From Antedon mediterranea (Eukaryota; Animalia; Echinodermata): 64,000 nt of DNA. Location: assembly GCF_964355755.1 (NCBI RefSeq), contig NC_092675.1, forward strand, positions 30,538,912-30,602,911, read 5' to 3'. The translations under genes and the position numbers were made by a program. The notes under the pieces are model-generated. The model was given only the letters and a program-made list of their open reading frames with translations, searched no databases and was not told the origin of the DNA. Positions 1 through 64,000 of this stretch are shown piece after piece; position 1 is the first letter of the stretch, and every line of letters starts with the position of its first letter.

Positions 1-669
1 GAATAGATATTGTTACGTAACCAGGATGAACAGACGGACGCCATGTAAAAGTAGGACACTCTTGACGTTGTTGGCGCTTTCCAATATCTTCCAGTTCTGT
101 TATAAAACATTCTTTGTTAACGTCTTTTTCTTCTTTCATAATTCTACTGCTCATTTCATCCACAATTTTAAAATCTTCACAAGGGGTTGTATGATGAGGA
201 TCTTCGGCAGCAATAGCAAGAGGAATCATCAAGTCCATTTCATCGTCTACGTAAGACATTCCAGGACCACTGTTATCTGCTATTGCAAAGCCTTCGCTCG
301 TGCTGCCTGTCCATACAATACCACTCATATCCTTGATGTTATCAAAGCATGGTCTCACCAAATCAAAAACCTGCTGAAATCGTTTAGGCAATGTATTTGT
401 GTTATCTGGAAGTTGTTTATTTTTCTGAAATAGTACTATCAATTTACTTTGAAGTTCAACACTTGTTGTGATGAACCTCATGTGATCGTTAGAGATCGGA
501 TCCACTCGAGTAGCTGGATTATTGTGAGTTTTGTACAAGTTAACAGAAAACCCTATCAATGTTCTTAAGTCTTTTTCGTTTAAGTATCCTTTTCTAGATC
601 TCTGATTTATCTCAAATAGTGGATTAAGCGCCTGTTCTGTTTTCACATAGAACTCATTTATCGAGTCGT
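1..669 (-). CDS. Large exon encoding N-terminal part of Mab-21/cGAS-like NTase domain
   Basis: Open frame from acceptor at 671-670 to window edge; GS(T)SEG and E-M-D catalytic-type motif plus HPGYV, typical of invertebrate cGAS-like receptors. Absent from the ORF track because it has no stop within the window. Confidence 0.78.
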
Positions 670-3600
670 CTAAAGAATTAAAAAAGAAGTTATCATTATT
701 TTTACTACTGTACCGAAACTTGTTATTTTCAAATGTTTATAATATTTTGATAGTTTGAGAAGACTTAGGACACTAACCTGGTTTATTGTAGACCTCTTTC
801 ATTTTCGGATGTGTATCTTCATTAACGAAGTCAAAACCATATGGTGCACGCATGCGTGACACGGACACAGGATTATTGCCAACAGTCTTAACAGAAAATG
901 ATTCTTAAAAAGTGAAAATTCAGGTTACAGATACATACGCCATGTTATAACTATCTTTGTGATGAACACAATTCTGGTGAAGTATTAATAAGTCTTTTTT
1001 TTATTAAAACAAATAGAATTTTGATTATCAAAACTACGAAACTTTTCTTTACCAAAGGGTTCATCAACGGTACTGTCGGGTGACTTTTGCTGAAGTATTT
1101 TACCAACATTTTCTGTGATTGACACCTGAACACATTTTCCACTTGTTGCGACTAGTGCATACACACCTAAATTGAAAATAAAATAAATATCAACGTCTAC
1201 ATAAATCACTTTATTTCAACCTATTTTTTTAACAATGATTGATCAAACTCACTGTTATTTTATTCATAATACACTTACAAAACATGAAATAATTTATAAC
1301 ACACTCAATCAAAGTAACATATATTTCTGTTCATAATAATTATTTGACAATAATTTGATTAAAGTAAGAGAGGGCAAAAAAAAAATCAAAGCTTGTGTGA
1401 GGCAGCCCATACAATTACAAAGAAAACAGGATAATACGGGAACCGGAAGCAAGACAAAAACATTCTTCTACAACATAGTATTACATGCAGGACAATTCCA
1501 ATGTTGTTTAACGTTATGTTATGCCAATAAACTGTAATGCACCACATAATACCACGACTATATGCTGTTTCCCACTTTCAACTACAATTTTTGTTTTCCT
1601 AAAGTCTAACAATTTACTCCTATAGAATTGTATGTGACAGTATAAACAGGTATTAGAACAGAACTCACCTCCAGGAATATTGTGACAGTATAAACAGGTA
1701 TTAGAACAGAACTCACCTCCAGGAATATTCCGAAATGCGATGCCTTGATATTTCCCATTATATAGAAAAGCCAAAGTACCGTCTCGATGTAAAACAAAGC
1801 CTACTTTATCATCAACTTGAATGTTTCTTAGGTTTAGTTTGTACCCTCCACCAATCGTTTGAAAATCGCGCCAAAGATCATCATCTCTGTAAAAAATAGT
1901 TTCCATAAACATTCTTTTCACAATTAAAATTGAATGTGTTGTAGTCATCAGTCAATTTCACTTTCGCAAACTTGCTCAAAGCATTAAAGCGAAAGTTAGT
2001 ATGATCCATCATCGTGTTTTGATTTGTCAAATACTTGTGGCACGCTTACGTGGTGGTAACTAATTTTATTTACGAATTAAGTCAGTTCATAATCAATCAA
2101 TACCTAATGTATGATGATGTGTTTACTTCATACATCGTTCGGTATTTAATTGGTTTATTATCATCACTACCAACCTTAAAAACCAGAATCCACTACCTTT
2201 TCCATAACCATTTCCTTCGTAAAAAATATCATCGGGAAATGAATTGTAGATACAGACACCTACAAAAACAAGAAGCAACGGTAACGACAGTTACTTAACA
2301 ACTTTGCACTTACACAATGATGTTAATATCAGTGTAGCAAATGTTTGATAAATTAATTAATGATTAAACATATTTCAACGTTAACTTTTAAAAAAGGAAA
2401 AGTAAATGATATCCTACCAAACTCCATTGAGCTGTTATGACTGTCATCTACTTTATCAATTTTTAACTCGAAAAGTCTTGACGTCTGAATCGGTTGGTTA
2501 GACACAAATACCGCTCTGTTGTACATAACACCGCTGTTAATACGATAAGCGATAGTTCTATCGCTGTTGACGTCACCGTGTTCTCTCACTGGTTTCAACG
2601 TATACGGAATTGAAGCTGTTTGTTCCTAAACATGAAATATACGTATACATAAAGGGAATATTGTTATAAAGTTATTTAGCTTCTTTTAAATCTTCTCAAT
2701 TAAAAAATAATTTGGTCTAAGAGTTACTGTTTGTGTTATCTTACAATACAAGTCTCACTATTAGTAACTATGCCTAGATATTTTTGTATTGGCATTATGC
2801 GTCATATCACATCACACTTTTTTTGTCAAACTAGTATAGTGTAGATTATTGTTCCATGGTTGGAATATCCTCGTTTCTCTTACTTGTTCACTGGTTGTGT
2901 TATTTGTTTTCAGCTCTCTACTGGTCGTGACATTTGTAGTATGGCCGCATTCATCTTTTCTATCTCTACTTGACAATACTTCTGCTTTCTGAATTGACAT
3001 TTCCTCTGACTGTGGAACATTTTCTTTTGAAAAATGTGAATGGGAGCCCACATCAATGTTACTGGCTATACCCAACTTTGTTTCTTCTTGTTTACTGTCA
3101 ACCGACTTTCCTTCTGTCATGGTGGTTGTAACACTCTTGTCTACTTCTGATACTTTTTTTGTGATTTGACCTCTGTATTCACTAGTTTTTTCATCAAGGT
3201 AAAGAAGCTATGTAAAACAAAATTAGAACCAATTTAATTTTTGGAAAAATCGGTAATGTGTACAACCTGGCGTGAAAATGTTTTGAAAAACCCAAATGTT
3301 ATCAATGTTACAGTACTCAAAACTAACATGCGTACCACCAAACGGCGCTCACTCGTCTGTTCACAACGACATAGGAATGGACCAGTACACGGGGTAACAC
3401 CTAATATTCGGAAAAATGATCTTGGTTATTCAAAGTGCACACGACCAGATATGTACACTGGACCCTCCAGTTTTAAATCTGTGATCTGTTCTACCACCAG
3501 AACAATGAAGAGTGCCTTGAACCTGTGCCAATTGTGTAGCTCCGCCTTAACCACTCGGCCACTTGACTCTACAAATACAATACTGATGGTCTATAGACGT

Positions 3601-6600
3601 ATAAGTCCAGATTATTGATTTGTAAATTATGAAAGTTTTTATTCAAACGTTTGCATAAGTTCAGGCAGACTTTCTTTGAACTTAAATTTCCATCACCCAA
3701 AGAAACAAAATGTTACCTTTTGTTTAAAATGCTGATAATATGCGTCAGTGATTGTGTGCATTAAGTTTAGTGCTCCATGTTCAATAAGTACTTCCGGGTC
3801 ACAATCGCTGTAGGTAACTATAATTTCGATTGACGTTTTAATAATCGTCCATTGTAGCTCATCTGTATAAACTGTTTCTGTGTTCGCTTTCCATACATCA
3901 TTAATGATACGAATAAGTATATCTGTCAAGGTAATACATGTAGAATAAGATTATCAGACTATTGTATTCGTAATTGTAAGGTTCTTTATTATAATCATCG
4001 ACTTTAACGTTTATTGGCAAAAACTATTTCTTTCGATTTTGATTAATACATTTTTATTATATAGCTATGAATCTCATTCAAACTGTTTGTATCTTGCCAA
4101 ACAAACGCCTAAAATAAAAGGAGAATACATTAAACATTAATTAAAGATAGTATAATTATATAGGCCTATATATTCGTCGTTATATCCCAAATACTCACGG
4201 GATACTTCTTAACATCGTAATCAAATTCGATTTGTCGCTTTCTATATTATAGTAGACTAGTAAGTGGATATTACCTGGCCACCCATGTTCATTCATATGT
4301 TTCAGAATGGTTTGTCTTCGATCTTCTTTTGAAATCATCTGTCTAACGGCAGTAACAATTTCTATGACGTCATCACTCTCAAAACTGTCACATTGCAATA
4401 AAACGCAGTAAAGATTATCCAACATCTGAATATTATCTAAACATTGACTTTCGTTATCAAGACATTTTTCGCCTAAATTAAAAATTAGAATTTTATTAAT
4501 TTATAATCACATTATAAACTTTTCTGAACAATTTATAAAGTTATACAAAAATTTATAGACAATTTTATTTATTTTTTCGATATGTATTTCATTATTTGCA
4601 TGCAATTGATTAAAATTGAAAATTAATTAAGTTACTTTTCATTGTTATTTCGTTTTCTGTTTGACGATCGTGTTCAACAACATCAGACGATGACGTGCAC
4701 TCGACGTCACTAAATCGACGATCGTGTTCAATAACATCAGACGATGACGAGTCATCGACGTCACTAAATCCCCATTCGTCAAGAACTTGCCTCACGTACA
4801 GCCTTAGTCTACTCTTGTCATTTCTTTCCATTATTGCGTACAAGAAAGTCAACGACTTATCTATTATCTGCTCGCAGAAATGTGTAAAAACTAGTTTTAT
4901 TAATAAAGACCACATAATTAAATTTATTTTACTTAAAGACAGCTTGTTATGAGAGTTTGTAAATAATTGCTTTGACCTAATACAATATTAAATTAACTTT
5001 GAGAAAGCAATTTTTCTATCATCTTACCAATTCTTTATCTGGAGAGAGTTAAAATAACTATTTTTAAACATGACGTCATCGTACCTGATCTTTGTTGAGA
5101 GGATGTACAGCTAAATTAACGAGTGCTTCAACCAATTCCTGTACAGAGAATCCTGTTGATTTACCTGAGAGTGTGTTATCCAAAACTGAAGTTATCTCAT
5201 TTATTACTCCTAAGAAAAGTAATGAGATCATCAAATATCTACTTAGATGTATAATCTATCTAGAGCTTGGTTCCCACTAGAGACACAACGCAATGACGTA
5301 ACGCAACGTATTGACCAATCACAAGTTATGGATTATTCGAACGGTGGCTTGTCATTGGTCAACTTGATTGCGTTGCGTCTCTAGTGGGAACCACGCTATA
5401 GTGCACCGCAAGTAATTTGACCAATCACGACACGTCAGATCACCAGGATGTACGCTTGTGATTGTTCAACTCACTTGTGTTTCTTTACTCCATGGTTTCG
5501 CCCGGGAATTAAGGATTATTGAAATATGCCTACAAAACTTTTATTTTTGGACTTGCATCTTCAGAACTATTTAGCACATTTGTTTACATTTTGAATGCGT
5601 ATTCATCGTCAGCAGAGCCCTTCTATCAGTTTGTATTATTAAGTTAATTTATGTGAAATAATCAATAATTGATGATTCATCCTACCGTGTTTATGTGAAA
5701 TAATCAATAATTAATGATTCATCCTACCGTGTTTATGTGAAATAATCAATAATTAATGATTCATCCAACCGTGTTTATGTGAAATAATCAATAATTGATA
5801 ATTCATCCTACCGTGTTTATCCTCTAGTAACTCCACGTCGATGATAGGATCTGCTATGTAGCTAATTGCTATCAGAGAATACAGACATCTCCATTTTGAT
5901 GGTGAACCTTTAAAGATGTCAAGTATTTTCCTCCACTCAGAAGTGCGAAACAATTCTCGATTTTTTCTACTTTTAGACAAGTTGCTTATAACACACAGAG
6001 AAGAATTTAAAAGCAGTTCCATCCTCTGTAATAATATAGTTTTACAATAAAAAATAAAAAATGTGTACATTAATTGTATTTTCCTTTTCTGTTATACTAT
6101 ATTTGGATGGAGAATTGAACCAAGTAAATAACATACATAAGACTCTTTTGTGGGCTTTTAATATTGTGGGATGATTTTCGATGCTAATCTGCTATTCGAG
6201 ATTATGCTCTTGTAGACTAAACAGGAGCTACAATATAAATGCTGGAAATTGCTATTAAAATTACCAATACGACGTTTGTGGTACGAACCAGTCAAGAGCA
6301 TGCAGGATCAAAGCACCATTCATTCGGAAGACAATGAACTGCTACAATGAATGTATTATAAACACTATATTAATATATTACCATTGAGTCGGTATGAGTA
6401 TGTGGCATTAACTCAACTAACTCTAAAAATGATTTGATATTGTTTGTTTGTTTCTCCTTTGACATTTCCGTTACAGATAGTATCGGAGTTGTATTTCGAC
6501 TAAACAAAGGAAGAAGAAGATGGTATTCTTTTCGTTCAGAGGTTTTACTACAGTATGAATATAAATTTAAAATGTTTATGAATAAACTACCTTTGACATT

Positions 6601-6689
6601 GTCGGATCATCTTCCCAAAATGTTGCCTCCGACGTCATCGAAGGATGGATACCGGAGAGTGGTGGAAATATACTTTCAATTTTCTCCAT
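1..6689 (-). CDS. Multi-exon gene (3'-truncated by window edge): ARM-like region + low-complexity linker + Neuralized/NHR domain + Mab-21/cGAS-like nucleotidyltransferase (cGLR)
   Basis: Phase-consistent GT-AG exon chain: 6689-6591 (MEKIESIF...), ~6025-5813, ~5208-5085, ~4867-4635, ~4472-4276, ~3922-3717, ~3207-2884, ~2624-2418, 2259-2175, 1886-1717, 1166-1053, 903-778, 669-<1. NHR-like motifs: HGDVNSDRTIAYR..NRAVFVSNQPI..FELKIDKVD..SSMEFG; DKVGFVLHRDGTLAFLYNGKYQGIA; VYALVATSGKCVQVSI. Last exon reads IVWTGSTSEG...DDEMDLMIP...HPGYV. Confidence 0.8.
1633..1728. repeat. 48-bp tandem duplication containing a splice donor
   Basis: tgtgacagtataaacaggtattagaacagaactcacctccaggaatat at 1633-1680 and 1681-1728; each copy carries GGAG|GTGAGT on the minus strand. 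Confidence 0.9.
3330..3570 (-). mobile_element. tRNA-derived SINE, same family as 59300-59635
   Basis: Minus strand starts GTGGCCGAGTGGTTAAGGCG (A-box-like) and shares blocks TTCTGGTGGTAGAAC, AGTGTACA(C/T)ATCTGG, GCACTTT(A/G)AATAACC, CCC(G)GTGTACT with the copy at 59300. Confidence 0.65.
5264..5397. mobile_element. Palindromic MITE
   Basis: Terminal inverted repeats agcttggttcccactagagacacaacgcaa ... ttgcgttgcgtctctagtgggaaccacgct. Confidence 0.7.
5649..5820. repeat. 42-bp tandem repeat (~4 copies) overlapping an exon donor
   Basis: Unit ttatgtgaaataatcaataattgatgattcatcctaccgtgt; on the minus strand each copy has AAACACG|GT. Confidence 0.85.
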
Positions 6690-11800: not shown

Positions 11801-12724
11801 TAAATATTGTACTGTCCTGCTTCAAATAAAATTATTTTAGAACTTTACATTTTTATATCATTTTGAACATGACCTATTTTACAATATGTTGCCATGGAAT
11901 CCTTCAGTGACAATATTGGCAAAGATGATTTTCTTATTTTTGTAGAGGGTTACTCCCAGGTTTAACATTCTCAAATGAGCTGATAAGTCGAGATGAGGGG
12001 CTTCATTGTGACTTTGCTTGTGCACTCTTTCGACACCTAAAACACAAACCAGCTAAATCACGAATCGCAGAGATTATAAGCTCAGCCGTTGCTGTTGAAG
12101 TGCAGTTTTTAGTGGAAGCTGTTCCAGTCAAAATGATCGGAATGAATGCTGCCCTCATGAAGCAGTATATTCAATTTGTAGCTGATAGGCTTCTGCTAGA
12201 ATTAAATTGTGCAAAAGTGAGTATTAAAACATCTGTACATATATCATTCAATACGGTAACAATTTCTAATAAACATTTTTATTTATTTTAAATGTTGGCG
12301 ACAATTTTTCAAGCGCATGATTTTTAATTTTGAAGAAAGTAACTCCAAAACTTGGATATTGATTCTGAAATTGACTTTACTTGATTGCGAAAGTATTTTA
12401 ATCTTATTACAAAAGTTATAATTGACAAAAAAACAAGATGATCGACAAAATTAAGGTTTTGTTTTATTTATATATATTTGTATATTTGCAATCTCCTTGT
12501 CATTTTGTTGCAAAGTTGTATGAGAATCTTTTTATTCATAAAAATATCAACATTTGTATTTTTTTCAGGTTTTCAAAGTAGAAAATCCATTTGATTTTAT
12601 GGAGAATATCTCATTACAAGGCAAAGCCAACTTTTTTGAGAAGCGTGTTGCAGAATATCACAAAGCCAACGTTATGGTTCCAGAGACTGCACGACATCAG
12701 TTCACATTAGATGCAGACTTTTGA
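8898..12724 (+). CDS. RRM2: Ribonucleoside-diphosphate reductase small subunit (RRM2/RRM2B-like)
   Basis: Exons ~8898-9363, 9590-9654, 10263-10409, 10851-10942, 11634-11781, 11946-12216, 12569-12724. Motifs [63 protein letters not shown]-terminal FTLDADF*. Possible extra first exon with ATG at 8442. Confidence 0.95.
9687..9953. mobile_element. MITE-like element with short TIRs in RRM2 intron
   Basis: tactcggggta ... taccccgagta terminal inverted repeats. Confidence 0.55.
11452..11521. repeat. 14-bp tandem repeat
   Basis: atggagcatacatt x~5. Confidence 0.85.
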
Positions 12725-12900: not shown

Positions 12901-14798
12901 CATTTCACCTTAAAATCACCTATAAAGTATATGTTATGTTTTTGCAAACATAGCTGTCTATAGTTCCTTGTAAGTCTTCCTCATTATAACTTGCTAGGGT
13001 GCTATAAGTATATTAATTTAAAAATAATATATCTATGATGCGTCTAGGATATAAAACAAGAAGAAGGAACTACAATTGTAATGTTGTAAACCACAGTTTT
13101 GCTACCTCATAAATTTACAAGTATGTTTGTGTATAGCAGCTTATTAATTAATTGTCGTAAACTAACCAAAAAAAGAAAAATAAGATAGGACAAAATTGTT
13201 TTAATAGATTGTTTTAAAGCCAGTATTTAACTTCCTATATTGGTTGATTCCACATTTGTATGGGTCAGTATTTGTGTATGGGTGTCAGGGTGTATATTTG
13301 AGTACGCTACAGTGTATTTTATTTTAACACATTACTTTGGTATGTGTATATCATATTTGTTCATATTTATTAATTACAGCAATAAATACGATTTTACTAA
13401 ACGGCATTGATTTGCTCAAATTTCGTTTTATTTTTTGTATCATTACATTTGAACAAATGAAATACGAAGCTTCCTTGTTGTAAGTGCTGTCCCTGCGCTG
13501 TGTCATTGTGTTTCTACTCGTTCTACGATAATAACAAATGCAATAGTTCGTCAAATGATACAAATTCTCGTTCCAACGCTAGTTTGCTGATTTGGGGTGA
13601 CTGACAATACATCTACCTGTACCATAACCAAAAGACAGAACAAATACAGTAACCACCAGTCGTGAAACTTTAAAGCATGTGGTTACTGATTACTTGGCAC
13701 GTTTTTCTTTCATTGTTTACGGATGTGCATCTAAACCTATCCCATCCGCTTTACTTTATCCTGATACCACACCTTATGTCTGACTTATGACGTCAGCAGA
13801 CAGCAATATGTACCTGTCGCCAGTACCGGTATTGATAGATATTCAACAAAAGTCAGTTTACTATTAGCTGGACAGGGTAGAATTTTACCGAGCTTTCATA
13901 AGCATACGTAACAGGCGTGCGCTACCCTCCCACATTTTTTGCTGTGCATTAAACAGTTCAGATGTTGTTTCTACCGTTTACGAATTATTACAAACGAAAT
14001 AAATGTAGGCCTAGTGAGTCTTCGTTCTTAAACGTGTTTTTTATGCATCCATGTGGATAATATAAAGGTACAACAAAGCTTTACTATTAGGCAGCTTAGT
14101 ACCGTTAATAAGCTGACAAAACAATACAATTTGACGTTGTTAACCTAATACTACCATCACCATATCAATATCGTCATCTTAATAATTCATCGTTTACTTT
14201 TATGACTCAATTTAACTGTTATCCATCCACCAACAATTAGCGACGTCAAATGTCGATTATCTTTAAATAATTATCGTAAAAAAGGTCCGTTTGATGTTTA
14301 CAACATGTATTATGTAGACATTGTATAGATAGCATAGATATGGCATATGGAGTTAGAGCTGGAAACAAGTTGAACGTGTTGCACCTTGTTGCAGCCCATC
14401 ACACACTTTGAACACAACTTGCTATAAAACAGTGTTGCAGTACAAACTGAAACAAGTTTGTTGCTTATCAACTTATTTTACATTAAACAATAGTAAAATG
14501 ATGTTTATGAATATTTTGAAGACATAATGTAAACATATTGCTAACTTTGATCCTTCGGAAACGTTTTTTTTTAATGTGTAAATTTGTATTTTGATAATAT
14601 CTAATCTGATGCTTTACTGATAAATACAGCAAATATACACATGTCTGTACACACACCTACATTTCCGTCCGTTCGTCATTGGATAACACACAACACGTCA
14701 CAGTACAATATACTTTTATGGCGTAAGTGAGTACTTATTATTAACAAAGTTCTTTAGGATTTTGTCTATTGTTTCAGTAAGTAAAACAGATAATAAGG

Positions 14799-15434
14799 AT
14801 GGAAAGCCATGGACATGGCTCTGCTATTGAGCATTACAGAGTGGTAGTGATGGGAACTGCAGAGGCTGGTAAGAGTGCTCTTGTACAACGTCTACTTCAC
14901 GGTGAATTCACTGACGGCTACACACCCACTGTGGAAGCTTTATATCCGTTTACAGAAGGTAAACCGGCTAATTGTGAGAAAATATCTATCGAAGTTCTCG
15001 ACACGGCTGGCTCGTATAACTTTCCTGATATGCAACGAATTTACATAAGTTCAGCAAATATCATCTTGTTGGTATATTCTCCTGATAACTATGAGTCTTA
15101 TAAAGAAGTGTTAAAACTACGTGAACTTATTAAAGATCAACTTGAAGACAAAGTGGTAGGCATGGATGTTCGCATGGTGGTAGTCAGTACAAAATCTGAT
15201 ATAGATCATAAACAACAGAAAATAACATTAGCAGAAGCGGAATTAGAGTTTATTCAGTGGGATATTCCTGTAGTAGAAACGTCAGCTAAGGAAAACACTG
15301 GTTTTGAAGCCTTAAGGAGTTACATAGCTGATTATATAGGGAAAAGAAAAACAGGTGGAAAACAGAAACATCGCCTTTCACGGCTATTATCGAAAATAAT
15401 GAAATCAAAAAGTGATGACGAAGAAGGGACATAG
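14799..15434 (+). CDS. Ras-family small GTPase (DIRAS/RASD/Rhes-like), single coding exon
   Basis: G1 GTAEAGKS, G2 YTPTVE, G3 LDTAGS, G4 STKSD, G5 ETSAK; no CAAX at the C-terminus. Confidence 0.9.
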   Translation: MESHGHGSAIEHYRVVVMGTAEAGKSALVQRLLHGEFTDGYTPTVEALYPFTEGKPANCEKISIEVLDTAGSYNFPDMQRIYISSANIILLVYSPDNYESYKEVLKLRELIKDQLEDKVVGMDVRMVVVSTKSDIDHKQQKITLAEAELEFIQWDIPVVETSAKENTGFEALRSYIADYIGKRKTGGKQKHRLSRLLSKIMKSKSDDEEGT

Positions 15435-27400: not shown

Positions 27401-30400
27401 CCAAGCACCAGAATCAGAGATTATTCAGTTTGTTACCTGTTTATTTAATCTGTAGTCGGCCATCTTGTATATGTAATCTAAGCGATTATTATTAGTTACA
27501 GCAATATCCTTCCCGCCTGCTATCAGTTCATGATTCTAAAAATAGAAAACAAATTTTCAGTTTGTTTATTTTAGTAAATAATGATAATGTTTAATAATAG
27601 GATTATTATCATTACAATACTAATACATTGAATTCATTCCAATAACATTTGCGAGGTTATTTAATATGATCTCCAGACTGTTGTTGTTTTATAATGAATG
27701 AGTCCAACGGGACAAATAATTAACTTCCCAAACATGCAGCCCACAGCCTAGCCTTGTGTCGCACATTCCCATTGCTCACTGTTAACACAAAATGAACAAT
27801 GCACTCTGAGAGTTTAATAGTATATGTCTATCGAACATCATGTGACCCACTATCATCCAATCAAATGATAAGAATCTATTCAAGTGTGTAATATAATAAA
27901 TGTTACTGTTACAGTTACTGCTAGTTAGATTATAATGTATAGCATGTTATTTCTTACCTGTGTTTCACCCATCTGACTATCAGTGACAACAAAGTTCAAG
28001 TAAAGAGATGACACGTCGCCATCGTAATCTCTCAGATACAATAGATTCCTACAAATATTAGTATAGGAATGCTTTAGGCGATTTCATAGAAGAAATACAA
28101 TATCTGCTCAAATGCTCCATGCAAGTTAAATGGAGTTTATTTATTTATTTATTTATCTATACAGTATATTAATTTGGAGACTCAATATCAACGTTTATTC
28201 ACAATTATAATATTCAATAGTATACCAAAAGAAGCAGGTGCTTGTCAGTTTGGTAACCACTTAAATGTACAGTACATACATGCCAGACAACATTCATAAA
28301 CAAAAAAAAATTATGTACGATGTGATGACTTAACACCTTGGAACTTACTTGTACATGAGTGGATCTAAGGAGGCAAGGTGATGAATATCAACATCACCGG
28401 TGTGACGAGTTAAAATCTTGGAAAGGAAGAAACTTGCAAATGGAATCTCCACTAACATATTTTCATACAGTGCCTAAAATAAGAATACAATTTAATCAAA
28501 TGTAGCATTATCTTCATGAAAGAATGAGGACTATACATATATATCAACAAAAAGGTAGTGAACTCAATCTCTCATCACTGTATTGTATTGCATACAGCTA
28601 CTGTATTGAGTGGCAAGAGCTTTAAACTGGCTTGCTTAACATAACCTACAGTACTGTAAAGGTGTCTACACTATCAAACCTTATGTGACAACAAAATGTG
28701 ATGTGCCCATATATAGACATGATGATGTCATATTACTACCATATTTGGGAATATCACTGCCATATTTGGGAACATCACACTTTTTTTGTCAAACTAGTTT
28801 GATAGTGTAGACAGAGCTTAAAGTTACTAGGGATACATTTTCAATTTTAACTTATAATGAAATTGATGATTCTGAAATCCTTAATGGTAGAAAATTCCAC
28901 AATCAAAATAAATAAGAAGTTGCATACCTTTCCCAACATTCTACCCATAAAATAGTAATGTTTCTTGTAGTCTTCATGCAGAAGCACTGCCTGTGCATTG
29001 GGATACAACATTTGGTCTGTTGTTGTTTTAAAGAATCCTCGATTTGGATCAAAAGCTGTCTTGAGTAGTTGTGCTAAGAATTCTCTGAATATACCACCAC
29101 CGTCAATCCCAGCTTCATTTAGGCCTTGAGCATTCCGAATCACAACACGCATTCTCTTCTTTAACGATGGTTCTATTAGAAGCAACGTTTTAAAAATTCA
29201 AATTGTGATCCATCATCAGTAATCAAACAAAAAGCTCTATCTACACTATCAAATTAGTTTGACAAAAAAAAGTGTGATGCACGCAAATATGGTAGTGATA
29301 TGCTCAAATATAGTTGTGATAATATGATGTCATCATATCCATAGGCACATCATAATCCGTTTTGGCACATAAAGTTTGACAGTGTGGACAGAGCTTAAGT
29401 TGGAGTACACAAAAATTAATGAAGTAGCATTGTTGTCAATGCCATAGCACTCTGATAATGATGATGACATCATAATCAGATTTACTTTTGTCCTTTTCAA
29501 ACTGGGGACAAACAGGGATAGTGCAAGTAAGTTTAGGAACTGAATAACTTGACTATTTTCGAACACTTCCAATGATACATTATATGTTTGTTTATGCTTA
29601 CCATGTTTATGGTGGCTTATATTGAGTAAATAAAAGAAAAAAAGAAAGTTCAGAGTGTATTAACGTTACCATTTTCTGGCCTCAGTCTGTCATAGGCATC
29701 TTCATAGATGAAATCTCTACGTATAGTAGTATCAATACTGTGTCCAGACAGGTAACGTGACATATCTCCTTGGAATTCGTTTTTATCTTGCTTGATTAAA
29801 TCATGTAATATCTACAATAAAAAAAAACAAAACAATATATTACAATGGAATTCAAATAGATATTTCAATGAGTAATTATGCTAATTCGTATGCTAATTAA
29901 TAGTCAAAGTACATACCAAGACTCGTTCAGTAAATGGAATCACAAAAGGAAGTTCAGCCAAGATTGTGAGTTTGCGAGCTTCTTGCACCGAGAGTGGCGG
30001 ACCGTCATCATCCATCGCCATGTGTGATTGGAGGAAACGAAGCCTACCAACGTTTGAATAATTTGCAATACGACTCTGCCGAGAAACACTCTGTCAAACA
30101 TTGATTTATTAGTACAGTAGATTAGTACAATTTGATTTGATATGTTCAGTTTAATTTGTAATAAAAACGCAAATTACAAAGAGGTGTCTATGTCCGAGAT
30201 GTCAGAGCTGGAACTCCGAACTTCAGTTTGGAAGTTTTTATTGTTTCAGTGACTTCAAATAAGCACATTATAATTATTACTAATAAATTATCATCTTCAA
30301 TAAGATAATGTGGTAATTTACACTTCATTTCAAATATAGCATCCTCTCTTAGGATTCAAAACATGCTTTTAAGACATTTTTTTAATAGTCCCAAAATATA

Positions 30401-39549: not shown

Positions 39550-42500
39550 ATGGCAGTCTATTTACCAAAGGTGTGTAAACTATATTATTACTATAGCACA
39601 GCATGCATAATATAAACTATTAATATAGGCACCAAATGCATACTGAGAAAGATCTGCTCCTGTATCATATATCAAATAATGTAATCCTTTTCAAATATAA
39701 GGTCCTTGAAAATAGTCATTAAAATATGTAGTAAATAGATTATGATGTTGACACACCCTTTTTTACCCATTACAATACCAACTACAGTACCAACACACCC
39801 TTGTTTACCCATTACAATACCAACTACAGTAGTCACCATTTAATGACAAAAACTATTATTTGTTTGATCTTCAGAGCTTAAATGGAATGTTATTTGTGGT
39901 GACATTATATGGATCTTTATGCATCATCGCCCTGCTCCTTATAACAATGTACCCTACTGATGAAATTGAAAAATGCACCAGACAAGGGGATAGCAGCTGT
40001 CGCCATTTACACGGGAAACAGTTAATTACTGACGGAGAGATGCGTCAATTTGACTATTTTAACGTTACTCCCATCGTACCTGTACTAGATACTGCCACTG
40101 AGGAAAGTGGCTATGTCGCTCTTCCAGGTCTAGAGGTAATAAACATTGCTTTGTTTTAATAATGTACATTATTTGTATTCTATTGCACATGAACATTCAT
40201 GAATTATTTATTATGCTAATATGACTTATACCTGAAAAAATTCACAATACAAAAATGAAAATGCTATCCATAATATACACAATGTTGGTTTGTTTTAAAA
40301 ATAGATTTATAAGGAAATGTTTACTTATGAAATAATTTCCCTCATATGCTGATTCAAAAGTGAGGGTTTGGTGGCATGGCTGACGGAGAATTACAATGTA
40401 AAGAACAGACTTTACGTTTGTTTGTTTCTTTATTTCCATTCACAAAATCATAAACATACATAAATAATCATTACAAAACAAAACAATGGAAAGAGGGTAA
40501 TCTCTGAAGCACAGCTTATAAGTAGAAACCCCTTGTTACAAAACAATATATATAAATAGAAATGTGAAAAAAAGGCACAAGGGCATAGGCAAACAAAAGA
40601 AAATGCAAACAATCTTTTTTCTTTTTTTAACAAAAGACCATTTGACCCGAGGTTTAATATTTATTAAAATTATGTTAACCAAAAAAAGAACATGAATATC
40701 AAGGGTATTGCTAAACACCGCAAACCCCCGCAAACCTCCAAAAAAACATAGCAAACCCCACCGAACCAACAGAAAAGTGATTGAATAATGTAGTGTACGA
40801 CCCACTGGGTATATAAATTATTAAATTTCTACTGTTAACTACTTTTTTGGGGATAAAACATCATTTTTTGGTTAAAAATTAGCAATCATTTTTGACCAAA
40901 AAATGATGTTTTACCCCAAAAATAAGTTGTTAACAGTAGAAATTTAATTTTTTTTACATGGATATACCCAGTGGGTTGTACACTACATGATTCAATCACT
41001 TTTATTATGTTGGTTCGGTGGGGTTTGCTATATTTTTTTGGAGGTTTGCAGGATTTAGCAACCATTTTTTACCAAAAAATGATGTTTTACCCTAAAAATA
41101 AGTAGTTAACAGTAGAAATTAAATATTATTTTACATGGATATACCCAGTGGGTTGTACACTACATGATTCAATCAGTTTTATGTTGGTTCGATGGGGTTT
41201 GCTATGTTTTTTTGGAGGTTTGCGGGTGTTTAGCAATCAATGTTGTTTTTGCAGCCGTTATCTCTTCAATGCTCAGAGTGTGCGTTTGTTACAAGTTCTG
41301 GTCGATTACAAGGAGAAGGAGCAGGTGAGGAAATAGACGAAGCACCTTGCGTTATACGAATGAATGCTGCCCCCACAAACGGTTACGAAAAAGATGTCGG
41401 TAGAAAAACAACTTTTCGAATTATTGGACATCGTAATTTTCCCCGTATGATGAATTCTGAGGAGAAAAGAAAGTATCATTTGGTAAATGCAACAACTAAA
41501 TCTGATAATATTGTATTAGTATGGTTATATGCTGTAGACTTTAACCCCAAAAGAAATCCAGCGAGGAGGTGGGCATCTGCCATGGCTCAGAAATATCGCA
41601 CTACCAATTTTTATATGGCAAATTATAAAACAATGACAGAAAATGAGGAGATATTTACAGCAGAGCTTGGTGTTTCTAGGTAAGCTGTTTTCTTTTTGTA
41701 TTTTTTAATGTTTTGTATTGTAACTTTTTCTGGTGTTTTAATGTTTTAATCTTTTTATGAATTACTTTTACCTTTAATTTCTTCCATTTTTTATATATAC
41801 TGTATGTTTTTATAAACCTTTTGTAAATGTGTGTGTACTATGAATTACTTTGTTAGTTGTCTTTGAATTATTTTTATTATATTGTTTATGTTCTCTACTG
41901 AACTCACCCAAATCAATACTTTAGCACTGAAAATATTATTCAGTATAAAGACATAATAAATAATTAATCAATAAATAAATATGTATTTTATATTGTATTA
42001 TCCAATCACAATTAATTATGTGCAAGTAAAATGTAAAGAATGTTTTGTTTGGTAAAAGCCTGGTTGATTCAAAATCAGTTTTGCCTTGAAATAGAACAAA
42101 TTCATAAAAATATTCTTGAAACCACATTCAATAAAAAAAACATTTATTATATATTTGTTTGCAAGTAAAATGTGAAGAATGTTTTGTTTGGTAAAAGCCT
42201 GATTGATTCAAAATCAGTTTTGCCTTGAAATAGAAAAAATTCATAAAAATATTCAACCACATTCAAGCAATAAACATTTATGATATTTGTATAATTAGTC
42301 TCGATCCACTCTGAATAATTCTCAGTCATATCAGCCAGACATTTAGTTTAAACTATTTCAACAAAAACTAATTTTACAACAGTACTTGATGTATTAGAAT
42401 GTTGTATGATGATGATGTAATAATTCGTATTCAAATTCTTATACCTAATTTTCTCAATGACCTCAATCCTAAATGCATATAACATCTGGAAATGTACAGA

Positions 42501-54400: not shown

Positions 54401-57400
54401 AAAAAATAGGGAACTTTCAAAGATGATGAGCTATGCATGACGCAACTATGAGATCTTGTTCCGAATATGAGCACTGTGATTTGACAGCTGTATTATATAT
54501 ATATATATGTGTGTGTGTGTAGTAATGTAGTTAGGAAGTTACGGCCTGTGTGTTAATAGTATTATTGCACATGTCTTTGTACAAACCTTTGTTTCTTTTT
54601 TTTAAATGCTTGACTCAGTTTTATTTGGTTTTTTTTTTTCATGGTTAAAAGGTACAAAATATCTGCATTACCTATGCACAAGAATCATGAACAGGAATAG
54701 CTTTTTAGAATATTTCCATGTTTCAACATATGGAGCAATGCATTGTCGGTGCGAATTGGTCAATTTGAGGATGCAACCTATTGGGTGGTCCTTTTCCATG
54801 CTGGATTGCTTTTTGAGCTGTAAGTGCTGCTGTTTTGCTTGCTCTTTATGTATATATGATATTTGTGTTCTGTTGTTGGGGAGCGCAATACAAAACAAAA
54901 GTGGCCTCTAGTCGTTGTATAATACCTCTATCTTTTAATCATCCAGTCAAATTATTAGGGTAGCAAACTAATAATGAGGGCAGCAAACTTGAATAAAGTG
55001 ATGTAGCTAGCAGTGGATATTTTCATCTGTGTATTTTCCACTGTGTATTTTCCAGACTTTTTGGAATAAATGAAAAATAAATAATTGAAGGCATGCTGAG
55101 AATATTCTTGTCTTAATCAATTGGATACACATCAGGAAGATAATAAAAGATATATGGTTCATACCGTTGTCAGAGGAGACTTGCTTGTGAGAAGGGGCAT
55201 ACAAAAAGATAACAGCAACCACATAGATGTTCCACATGCCATAAACACCGGTGAAGAAGGCGCTGCTAATCTGAAGCGTCTTCTCATGTCCCATTTTATA
55301 GTGATCTTCATAAACTTGACTCAAAATGAAGAAGATTACAGTGAGGGCAGCACATAACAAGGTGAACAACATGAAGAACTTGAATCTGAAAATCAAACCC
55401 TAAAAAAAAAAATAGCAAGACATTTAGAAAAAGTGAGACAGCAAGATTGTTCACCTTCCCGCACAAATAAGTATACAAAAAAAGAATATTATGTTATAAA
55501 ATGTTAAAATTTAATATTACTAGATAGGTAGTAAAAAAGGAAATCAAATTTCTTTTAGATTTAACTTCAACAATACCTCATAATGAAGGCGTCTCGCTTT
55601 GGCCATGTGTGGAAGCGCCAGACGTTTAATACTGATGTTTCTGAATATTTGCCACACCATGAAACAAAGAAACAGGAAGTAAGCACTGAAACAGATCCCA
55701 GCCATAACAAGAAATATCATCTACACTCAGATAAGGAATTTATCATTATAGACAAGCAGACACTATTTCCATCGGAATGAATGGAATTCGAACGATGTTC
55801 GTAAAAAAAATATATTTTGTTAAAGCTATAAATATCTTTGTATAGAAAAGAAAAGGAGGTGGACATGAAAAACATTGTTGCCTTGTCTCAGGTACTTTGC
55901 TTGAAACTTACAAATGATAATATGAATATTGATGATGATAATGAAGATGATAATGATATTATGATGATGACGATAATATTATGATGACGATGCAGATGTA
56001 TTGTGTTTAATTCACACTGAAAGGATACAGCCAAGTTTTTGCCCGTCTCTGTTGTCCATAAAGTGAAGAATGGATTTGAAATCTGCACTCCTCTGCAAAT
56101 TACAAAGAGTTGATTTACATTGTTATTCTAGTAGTACATTATAACACTGTTATTCTAGAACTATAATCCCTAATAGGAGAGCATCAACATGAAACATGGA
56201 TATAACATACTAAAATTAAAAATTAAGCAATAGTGGTAGAGTTGATTGGCAGCTTGCCTTACAATCCTAAGTTCTGGTTCTATTCACAGATGTCATTATT
56301 AAGTTACAAGTGACAAGGCTAGTGACACTATAAGTCTACACAACAGTGACAAATGCTCTAAACAGGGTCACTTACTCCATAAACCTACACATCTCATTAA
56401 GATTACAAATGTGCGTCTGGTTCATATTCTACATTTGATCAAGATACTTTACTTACCTTTCGCACATGTCAAAGACAAACATACAAAAACAACAAAAAGC
56501 AATTGTTCCAACTTGCTTCCAGTAGGCACTCAATCTTGCTCGCTCAACTGTGTCCTAAAAATTGAAGAAAAGAAAATATATACGACAGAAGTTCTTGTAT
56601 TCCTTGCTATACATTTATAAACATGTTACACAAGCTTGTCCAATCACTTATTTGCGCACAAGAATGCAAACATTTTGTATAGAACAAATTTCCACTCTCA
56701 ACTTGCACTTTCAATTTCAACGCAAAAAACGGTTTGGAAGATGGAAATGTGTTAAAAGCACGCAAATAAATTGGTCTAGTGTGAAAGGCTAATATTTCAA
56801 TGTTAAGTAATTGATGAATTTAATTACCATGAGATGTTCACCAACAAATATGATCCAAGACGAGAGTAACGTGGCGTAAAAGATTCCTTGACGTATGTCA
56901 CTAATCAGCAACATGTATGGGATGTTGAACCAGAACGTAAACCATTCAATTGGTACTGAAAACAACAAGGTCAAAGGTTAAAAACACAAATCTTGATTTC
57001 AGTACCTTTTATAAGTTTTTTAACTATCCTGGAAAAAGTGTTTAATGTCTTTTTTCATTGTCAGTAAATTATGTAATATTTAAACACTTTTTCTAAATAA
57101 AATCAAATAAAATAAACTTGTTTGTTAATAATTAATACTTACTATTGAGGAAGGTAATAGAAATTCCAAGAACCATAACAAATCTGTGAAATAAAAGTGT
57201 GATTGTGTAATCAGGAGTTAATGGTATACTACTCCTATATCATGGAATTAACAAATGTGATTGTGTAATCAGGAGTTAATGGTATACTACTCCTATATCA
57301 TGGAATTAACAAATGTGATTGTGTAATCAGGAGTTAATGGTATACTACTCCTATATCATGGAATTAACAAATGTGATTGTGTAATCAGGAGTTAATGGTA

Positions 57401-61528: not shown

Positions 61529-62749
61529 GATTCTAAATGAGAAAAAACAAATAATTTGCTGAAAATGTATGGATATCCGTAGGTGGTCGTTTTCTGCTTT
61601 GTTAAGCGGCGGTTAGATTTAATTACTTTAATAAATACCAAAAATACCTCTTGATTGCGCATGCTTATCGAACCTTCTCTTTTCCGTTTGTCAAATAAAG
61701 TGCGTGTGCAATGCGTTCATATATTAATTGATAACACTTTGTGTCAGCGGCGCGCGCACTCACAGCAAGAAAATAATTTTTTTTAAAGAGAAGTAATTTT
61801 AACTTTAATGTAGCCTAGCATACATTAGCATTATATTAGAGGCACACCTTAGGCAGTAACATTTTCGAATAAAATTGAAATTGAATTGTATGGAGATTCA
61901 GGATAAGGCAATAATCTCTCTGATATTAGGTCTACAATGAAAATACTTCTCATATGATCTTTCCATTTGATTTGGTTTGACTTTAATTTATTTAGTTGTT
62001 AAAAGTGACAACATGGTATGAATACATGATAATGTAGCACAATTAAAAACTGTAGCAGACTAGTATTTCCAGCAATAATAAATAATTATAATTTCACACA
62101 CAATTTGATGTATTTTTCTTTGTTGTTTTATTGTCTTAATTATGCCAAGCAAAACGAATTTCCATTTTAAAGTGGACCAATACAATTTCTTGAATCTTGA
62201 ATCACAAACACGTTATCTAGAATTAATAGGGTAATAAAATACAATAAAACTGTAACATAATAAAATTGTAAAAAGAATACAGGTTTAAAAGGTTCATAAT
62301 CATGGAACAAAATAGTGTTTTACATAATATTAAAAATTAAACCATAATTGCAATTAAATGAAGAAAAACAATAACAATTTCAGAATGAAATTAATTAAGT
62401 AAACACACAGAGAGAAGCCTTAAAAACTTTATTCAAAATGTTAAACTTTATTTCAATTCAATCAGTTCTTCCGAATTTTCTTTTTGGAATATGATATGAG
62501 GTCCTTCACTGAGTTTGAAAGAAACGCAATCGCGTTTCTAAACTATACAGTGAACGCGAAATGTCAAACTTCTTCACCGCTGTATACAAGGAAAACTAAT
62601 TCAGGTCAAAGGTCAGTTAAAGTCAACAAAACAAAAATTAGAAGAAGAATTGAAACAAGTGGCAACGTAGGCCAGTATCACGTAGGCAGGCATGTACCGC
62701 TAACATTACTAAATTAAATTGACGGTTGTTGAAATATAATTTCAACATC

Positions 62750-63077
62750 ATGCCTCTTCCAAACAAGGCATATAAAGAAGGATGTTGGATTGTTTTTCTT
62801 TGTTCTGTGTGGTACACAAGCAGTTCAGGACAAAATGTAATAAATAAGCAACTTCTAGGATATTTTCCGTACCCTGTCACGATATCAATGGTTCACATGC
62901 TTGCCGTTGCCTTGTTTCTTATACCGGTATTACGAATTCGAAAAGTAGAAAAACTAAAAATTCATGATAAACGTCGGTTTTTAATTCTTGTTCTTCCATT
63001 GGCTTTTGGAAAGTTTTTTGCATCAATATCTTCTCATCTAAGTATTGCAAGCGTGTCAGTGTCTTTTGCTCATACGG
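62750..63077 (+). CDS. SLC35E1: Solute carrier family 35 member E1-like, first coding exon
   Basis: LCSVWYTSSSGQNVINKQLL..FPYPVTISMVH..LPLAFGKFFASISSH.SI..VSVSFAHT|gtaagt; head-to-head with WLS. Confidence 0.85.
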
Positions 63078-64000
63078 GTAAGTAATATTATTATTATTAA
63101 TTATTATATTAATAAAAAAAAATGGGAAAAAAAAGTGGCAAAAGGCCATCATAAATGTTTTTAATTATACGTTTAATACTAGTTTATTATTATTTTATTG
63201 CTAAATCATGTCAATTTTGTGGTTATTTATGATTTAATCATGAAGAAAATTCTTGAAATGTGATCGATCAAGATTAAATGTGTTTTTAATTTGCAACCGT
63301 ATATGAGTGTTAATGTATTCTATTTGCCACATGTTGTTTAATTTGTTTCGTAAGAATTGATTATAAATATTTAACCGCATATAATTTTATTCACAGCGCA
63401 AGTCTAATGATTTTGTATTAAAAAGCAAACATGAGACAGTATAATTTTATTATTGTAAATTTTCAAATTCAAATTATTATTATATTATATATAAATTAAT
63501 ATTTGTCCACAGAGCGATTAAAATGTCCAAAAGACTTACAAAACCACATTATTAAAATTTCAAATCTCAAAATTGTTTCCAATTATTATTTTTATAAATT
63601 GTTATTGGATAAATTGAATACAGATATAAAAATATTGGCTATTCGATTGTGTTCGACAAAAATGTGAAAGAAACCTTTGAATGGTAAATGCTAATTATTG
63701 CAAATTAATTAAGCTTGTTCATTGGGTATTTACTTAATGTTGTAAAAATAATCCACTAAATACTAAATGAAAAAATACAAAAATCAAAGTCAAAGAATAT
63801 ACGTCCCATGTGTGCGCTAAATGTATTATGATGGCATATGGAAGTCTAGAGGTAGAGAAGTCTATGCCACGTTACAGATTGATTCTTAAATGATTAACTA
63901 CAATGCCATTCAAAATCTACTTTTCTCGTTAGTATATTTCTCATGAAAATAGGTACTGCAGGAATATTAATATATTTTTACTGTTTAGTCAACATTTACT

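Follow-up and report, generated by a model that had tools for sequence, protein, structure and literature searches.

What does a cGAS-like receptor (cGLR) do when it is built into one chain with a Neuralized (NHR) domain and an ARM-like helical region, and what would such an enzyme sense? The question is raised by a gene at the left edge of a 64,000-nucleotide stretch of the crinoid Antedon mediterranea (contig NC_092675.1, positions 30,538,912 to 30,602,911; hereafter the window), which an earlier note had read from its letters as a fusion of this kind. We find that the gene is real, expressed and conserved, and that it is a member of the cGLR/Mab-21 superfamily with what appears to be a new architecture; it is neither cGAS proper nor NEURL4. 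We predict that its product is a cyclic-dinucleotide synthase switched on by a protein ligand at the NHR/ARM modules and not by long DNA or RNA, a reading that we hold to have about an even chance of being right.

The gene lies on the minus strand and runs from an ATG at 6689 to the left window edge. Its 13 exons are separated by 12 GT..AG introns with matching phases, and when joined they give 923 codons with no stop. This translation is identical at 923 of 923 positions to the first residues of a database protein, P0001 (1213 residues), in which there is no early stop past the window edge. Residues 924-1213 of P0001, including the catalytic residue D1022, lie beyond that edge and their sequence is taken from the database protein only. 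The in-frame chain of 13 exons described in the earlier note therefore stands. The exons and the catalytic signature are as follows.

6591..6689, minus strand: exon 1, residues 1-33; ATG at 6689; identical to P0001; intron 1 without a direct RNA joint
5812..6025, minus strand: exon 2, residues 34-105; ARM-like half B (N-terminal helical block); loose end of an RNA-like contig (run X1) at its 3' end
5085..5209, minus strand: exon 3, residues 105-146; ARM-like half B; joint 4867/5085 in X1
4636..4867, minus strand: exon 4, residues 147-224; end of half B and acidic linker; 54-nt tandem duplication (4663-4770)
4275..4472, minus strand: exon 5, residues 224-290; ARM-like half A; homolog model matches CTNNBL1 and ZYG11B
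3717..3922, minus strand: exon 6, residues 290-358; ARM-like half A
2884..3207, minus strand: exon 7, residues 359-466; linker, likely disordered; no invariant columns, low model confidence in the homolog
2418..2625, minus strand: exon 8, residues 467-536; first part of the NHR; PF07177 at E 2.4e-8 from this exon alone
2175..2259, minus strand: exon 9, residues 536-564; NHR
1717..1886, minus strand: exon 10, residues 564-621; NHR
1053..1166, minus strand: exon 11, residues 621-659; end of the NHR; shares an X1 contig with exons 12 and 13
778..903, minus strand: exon 12, residues 659-701; linker, predicted beta-hairpin
<1..669, minus strand: exon 13, cut by the window edge, residues 701-923; two additional helices ahead of the cGLR domain, which starts at about residue 767
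233..307, minus strand: catalytic signature, G822-S823 (307-302), E844 (241-239) and D846 (235-233); D1022 is outside the window

Contigs of run X1 follow this chain. X1 comes from one study and is RNA by a tool's guess; none of the listed runs is recorded as RNA, and the GT-AG joints of X1 are our sole ground for treating it as such. All ten introns within 1-5250 are seen in it as CT..AC joints, among them the two junctions that the earlier note had singled out for checking (1053>903 and 778>669). Intron 2 is supported by a contig with a loose end at 5210 whose sequence corresponds to the end of exon 2 (5813-5842), bringing the total to 11 of 12 introns and leaving intron 1 as the only one without direct X1 support. 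The contigs cover the gene in pieces, none of them full-length. A single 566-nt contig contains exons 13, 12 and 11 and 33 letters of exon 10; it links the NHR exons to the enzyme exon and speaks against separate genes. Three other runs, all of one sample, continue straight across introns (for example, 374-1662) and are DNA-like.

It could be argued that P0001 is an annotation artefact in which two neighboring genes were fused, given that the RNA support consists of contigs of one run, none spanning the whole gene, and that residues 924-1213 are outside the window DNA. The chain of ten joints out of ten and the recurrence of the fusion in four further named species from two phyla largely refute this explanation, and we consider it exceedingly improbable.

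Searches with hidden Markov model profiles matched in P0001 all three of the families that the note had expected: Neuralized (PF07177, residues 485-638, E 4.1e-17, 62.9 bits against a curated cut-off of 23.3), Mab-21 (PF03281, residues 916-1088, E 7.5e-14) and Mab-21_C (PF20266, residues 1096-1190, E 1.4e-19). The in-window part of exon 13 alone gave no Pfam match; the Mab-21 models align mostly beyond the window. The Pol-beta-fold catalytic signature, hG[S]..[DE]h[DE], is present as WTGS, 20 residues and E844-M-D846-L, which also conforms to the motif h[QT]GS-X8-20-[DE]h[DE]h of Li et al. 2023. The longer string proposed from the sequence, WTGSTSEG-x16-DEMDLM...HPGYV, was found with a spacer of x15, not x16 (the G822 codon is at 307-305 and HPGYV begins at 28, minus strand). 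A third catalytic acid does follow downstream: V-D1022-V in P0001, placed on a strand in the model and in agreement with the h[DE]h criterion. The corresponding column holds D in 12/12 family rows and D or E in 47/47 other rows.

The predicted structure leads to the same assignment. A model of P0001 residues 656-1213, built from a 64-row alignment, had a predicted local distance difference test score (pLDDT) of 83.8 and a predicted template modeling score (pTM) of 0.82. From about residue 767 it is cGAS-shaped, superposing on cGAS with Z 31.9 and a root-mean-square deviation (rmsd) of 2.5 Å over 322 of 355 residues. Taken with the Pfam pair, this 322-residue alignment indicates that homology spans both the nucleotidyltransferase (NTase) core and the C-terminal helix bundle. 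MB21D2 (E 8.9e-18) and Sp-cGLR1 took the top Foldseek ranks, and the closest solved relatives by sequence were MB21D2 (E 3.9e-23), Sp-cGLR1 and cGAS; MAB21L1 and MiD49 have the same fold by structural comparison. Two extra helices and a hairpin precede the domain, and the spine region is modeled as a pair of helices interrupted by a loop.

Is the enzyme intact across the family? W[TA]GSTSEG, E-x-D and the third D were found in all 14 family proteins checked. In the 12 aligned family rows the GS, the E-x-D, the third D and an SYH-x-K motif are invariant, and the C-lobe contains 61 invariant columns. The long variable insertion that separates the third acid from the second, together with the partial state of several family records, might suggest a scaffold or decoy that has lost catalysis but not the fold. 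However, the invariance of these motifs in 12/12 rows, and a model in which the core stays whole despite the insertion, make this very unlikely.

The enzyme domain itself bears on the nature of the ligand. In an alignment with human cGAS the zinc-thumb segment is a gap, and P0001 has neither the zinc thumb nor the basic surface of cGAS proper. The isoelectric point (pI) of the domain is 5.54-7.57 in 12/12 members and 6.53 in P0001. According to the available text of Li et al. (bioRxiv 10.1101/2023.02.22.529553), cGLRs that sense double-stranded DNA (dsDNA) or double-stranded RNA (dsRNA) have a pI above 8.5, and acidic cGLRs have been proposed to sense ligands other than nucleic acid. As the domain is non-basic in all 12 members and lacks a zinc thumb, a ligand other than nucleic acid is favored; on the same two grounds, we infer regulation by the NHR and ARM modules.

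An alternative is that the protein is an ordinary nucleic-acid-sensing cGLR in which ARM and NHR serve only for cell placement or for recruitment of the ubiquitin machinery. The whole cGAS fold is retained, dsDNA and dsRNA are known cGLR ligands, and the C-lobe is net basic. On the other hand, no member of the 12 reaches the pI of 8.5, the zinc thumb is missing and the spine is modeled as split. We therefore regard nucleic-acid sensing as unlikely.

The candidate ligand-binding modules lie upstream of the enzyme. The NHR identified in P0001 by PF07177 was confirmed at the level of structure: in a model of a Saccoglossus homolog it matched 2E63, the NEUZ domain of KIAA1787, with Z 21.9, and we take KIAA1787 to be NEURL4. 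It contains 20 invariant columns. The N-terminal region consists of two helical blocks, B (about 34-180; 15 invariant columns) and A (231-365), with an acidic linker between them. No Pfam family matched the ARM-like region of P0001. In the homolog model both blocks are all-helical with high pLDDT, and block A resembles CTNNBL1 (Z 11.6, rmsd 2.2, 115 residues aligned) and ZYG11B (Z 10.6), both below the Z of about 13 wanted for helical repeats; half B was absent among the top 50 structural rows. The language-model neighbors (atlas) that have a family are of ARM type (0.93), an ARMC8 profile matched the region weakly (E 0.013), and a word-based search with the region returned only two proteins. 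The two halves are not a simple internal repeat, since they have no mutual match (best 2.7 bits).

A further line of evidence comes from a NEURL4-named protein of Lingula (P0157, XP_013418417.1), which has the order NHR-NHR-helical region-C-terminal domain and carries the same ARM type with another C-terminus. It was matched by half B with 49.6 bits and by half A with 17.1 bits, compared to at most 7.0 in 300 shuffles. The order of the halves is reversed in Lingula, with A falling within 425-556 (probability 87.8) and B within 557-752 (96.4) and no cross-match. When the halves were swapped in the profile, the Lingula protein gave one continuous alignment, but the score of 57.2 was not an improvement on the pieces obtained in native order (56.9 and 13.2). 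The reversed order suggests that the ARM halves are likely a permutation of a pre-existing ARM module, as judged from two near-identical Lingula sequences and a weak match of A. The homolog model, the language-model neighbors and the Lingula match together lend moderate support to the ARM-like domains of the earlier note, against which stands the lack of a Pfam ARM match.

The C-terminal domain of the Lingula proteins (P0157 and P0213) gave no Pfam match and resembles by eye the ADP-ribosyltransferase of NEURL4.

In the full-length homolog model (P0006), built from 13 sequences, the enzyme domain was predicted poorly (pLDDT 66, pTM 0.46), and for this reason no inter-domain contacts were read from it. 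A complex prediction that paired the P0001 enzyme part with the Saccoglossus NHR, a cross-species pairing, scored 0.00 and speaks neither for nor against a contact.

How widely does this architecture occur? All blocks (ARM-like region, NHR and enzyme) were present in 10 of the 212 proteins examined, every one from a crinoid or a hemichordate; four further proteins have the NHR and the whole enzyme with the ARM region partly or wholly missing. The named carriers are the crinoids Antedon and Anneissia and the hemichordates Saccoglossus, Ptychodera and Glandiceps. A quick enzyme-domain tree, rooted at the midpoint and comprising 62 of 64 rows, united the 15 family rows in a single clade with a support of 100 in the Shimodaira–Hasegawa-like approximate likelihood ratio test (SH-aLRT); the crinoid rows are a clade nested within it. 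The modules have stayed together in this family. We infer from this tree that the family may date back to the ancestor shared by echinoderms and hemichordates. A profile search of 1.84 billion representatives gave 5430 matches; among the best 150 listed, those covering the ARM region or the linker were, when named, from crinoids or hemichordates except for the Lingula protein. On this basis, loss in other echinoderms is possible.

Several paralogs occur per genome, with at least five records in Ptychodera and three in Saccoglossus. The closest named relative of P0001 is a second Antedon mediterranea protein, P0002. Its domains are 81-98% identical to those of P0001 and its linkers 27-33%, and it carries two FN3 domains inserted at about residues 697-720 of P0001, where a phase-1 intron separates exon 12 from exon 13. 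P0002 also appears in X1: a contig at 194-403 has a P0002 residue and a loose end. In two Ptychodera members, P0016 and P0068, the stretch inserted after the second acid and ahead of the third has expanded to about 340 residues.

The second alternative of some weight is a non-immune role, either as an active or nucleotide-binding Mab-21 protein in the style of MB21D2, MAB21L or MiD51, or as a nucleotidyltransferase that modifies a protein recruited by NHR/ARM and makes no cyclic dinucleotide. MB21D2 is the best match by sequence and by Foldseek, MAB21L1 and MiD49 share the fold, and NEURL4 joins NHRs to a protein-modifying ADP-ribosyltransferase (PMC8932523, available text). The neighboring genes, too, are housekeeping genes. 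Their exons span 8799-63082 of the window and include the following domain matches.

11929-12288, plus strand: ribonucleotide reductase small chain
14781-15431, plus strand: Ras-like GTPase
28850-29197, minus strand: HECT (weak match)
41234-41680, plus strand: sialyltransferase
55010-55399, minus strand: Wntless
62723-63082, plus strand: triose-phosphate transporter

There is no second copy of the ARM-NHR-cGLR gene within the 64-kb window. Against a non-immune role stand the fully retained triad and a lineage-specific expansion of paralogs with variable linkers and, in one paralog, an FN3 insertion; expansion of this kind, with variable linkers and domain insertion, characterizes immune families more than it does MAB21L genes. 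We consider such a role unlikely but by no means negligible.

Returning to the protein-activated synthase, we propose that the enzyme would be off at rest, that a ligand bound to the beta-sandwich of the NHR or to the ARM helices would open or cluster it, that it would then cyclise two nucleoside triphosphates, and that the product might serve innate immunity through STING or some other receptor. Background for these steps is available in part of the literature: NHR domains mediate protein-protein interactions (PMC8932523), SPRY-like domains, including NHR, are coupled to effectors in eukaryotic immunity (PMC8195603), and 2'3'-cGAMP is the commonest product among tested cGLRs. It could be speculated, more tentatively, that this is an ancient crinoid-hemichordate cGLR family in which sensing shifted from a nucleic-acid surface to an NHR/SPRY-type sandwich and a permuted ARM, yielding a protein-sensing or guard-type synthase from a toolkit that other invertebrates put on other effectors.

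Several observations weigh against the proposed activation by protein. The pI is a crude proxy for ligand type, and the C-lobe of P0001 is mildly basic (26 K/R versus 21 D/E). The putative ARM assignment of half B comes from language-model features and one distant homolog. No activator is known for the orphan MB21D2, the nearest solved relative by sequence, and the roles described for Mab21L proteins are developmental. The neighboring genes give no immune context. Finally, the spacing between the second and third acid is about 174 residues in P0001 and 150-224 in the full family rows, outside the published X50-90. A spacing of 50-90 was, however, found in only 5 of 47 other invertebrate Mab-21 proteins with an intact triad (median 110), which had been selected by two criteria, an intact first motif and a window of spacings. 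X50-90 is therefore a search filter and not a rule of the fold: P0001 fails the strict cGLR motif, yet belongs to the Mab-21/cGLR superfamily. A filter of this kind would probably miss many intact invertebrate Mab-21 enzymes, since 42 of the 47 in our sample lie outside it.

Most animal cGLRs have no known activator, and ligands other than nucleic acid have only been hypothesised for them. In the present family a single chain carries the enzyme along with domains that are candidates for ligand binding, and a hemichordate used in the laboratory is among the deuterostomes that have it; this one-chain architecture makes protein activation of a cGLR directly testable.

Some further features of the gene were noted in passing. 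The donor of exon 10 is copied by a perfect 48-nt tandem duplication (1633-1728), so that one donor follows 1717 and another follows 1669. Splicing at the latter would lengthen the NHR by 16 in-frame codons; X1 shows the former. A 42-nt tandem repeat (5648-5815) likewise copies the exon 2 donor into intron 2, with donor-like sites after 5812, 5728 and 5686. Very high-copy intron repeats lie at 5260-5430 and at about 2810-2835, the former with 40-nt inverted arms (5260-5299 and 5362-5401) and resembling a foldback element or a miniature inverted-repeat transposable element. Intron 6 contains a tRNA-like stretch (about 3500-3560, minus strand) with raised depth in the DNA-like runs; ARAGORN called no tRNA in this stretch, which we presume could be the head of a short interspersed element. 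Two additional exons were considered and rejected: one at 4108, where stops are seen on reading by eye and which the X1 joint 3922/4275 bypasses, and one near 6499, which is absent from P0001.

Relatives of P0001 are already in NCBI as uncharacterized proteins with the same Pfam matches precomputed. The full-text literature that was covered, which excludes most subscription papers, held no paper on an NHR- or ARM-fused cGLR and none pairing a cGLR with Neuralized or with hemichordates. The five supplements of PMC10732462 contained no match for the ARM-NHR-cGLR family, and neither the available text of Wu et al. 2014 nor the PLoS Biol 2023 supplements contained anything on this family or on hemichordate STING. 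In the survey of Li et al. (bioRxiv 10.1101/2023.02.22.529553), 87% of cGLRs are without an added domain, and its main text names fusions with TPR, ankyrin and death domains as well as tandem cGLRs. The word "Neuralized" is absent from that main text; architectures below 0.5% are pooled there as "Other" and placed in Table S2, which may list the fusion.

Compared to known systems, the family shares with cGLRs, including Sp-cGLR1 and human cGAS, the Mab-21 and Mab-21_C fold, the GS loop and the three catalytic acids. It differs from them in about 765 additional N-terminal residues (ARM-like region, NHR and linker helices), in its acid spacing of about 174 in place of 50-90, in the lack of a zinc thumb and in a non-basic domain. 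MB21D2, a human orphan cGLR with a chain of 464 residues and the best match in both PDB and Foldseek, resembles the enzyme part only and was outside the tree.

NEURL4 and NEURL4-like proteins such as Lingula P0157 resemble this family in having NHR ahead of an enzyme-type C-terminus; the NHR model matches 2E63, and both ARM-like halves match the Lingula protein. NEURL4 is described as six NHRs and a C-terminal ADP-ribosyltransferase domain (PMC8932523, available text), while P0001 has one NHR and a Mab-21 C-terminus and so falls outside that definition. NEURL4 and NEURL4-like proteins have two to seven NHRs, and the effector is a cGLR here and an ADP-ribosyltransferase in NEURL4. Relative to Lingula P0157 the ARM halves are reversed, and in our family the ARM region precedes the NHR.

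The ARM-TIR and NHR-ROCO-TIR proteins of invertebrates (PMC9334734, available text) likewise combine ARM or NHR with an immune signaling domain, but their effector is TIR. In the crinoid and hemichordate proteins the effector is instead the cGLR. The ARM region of the ARM-TIR proteins may be homologous to the one in this family.

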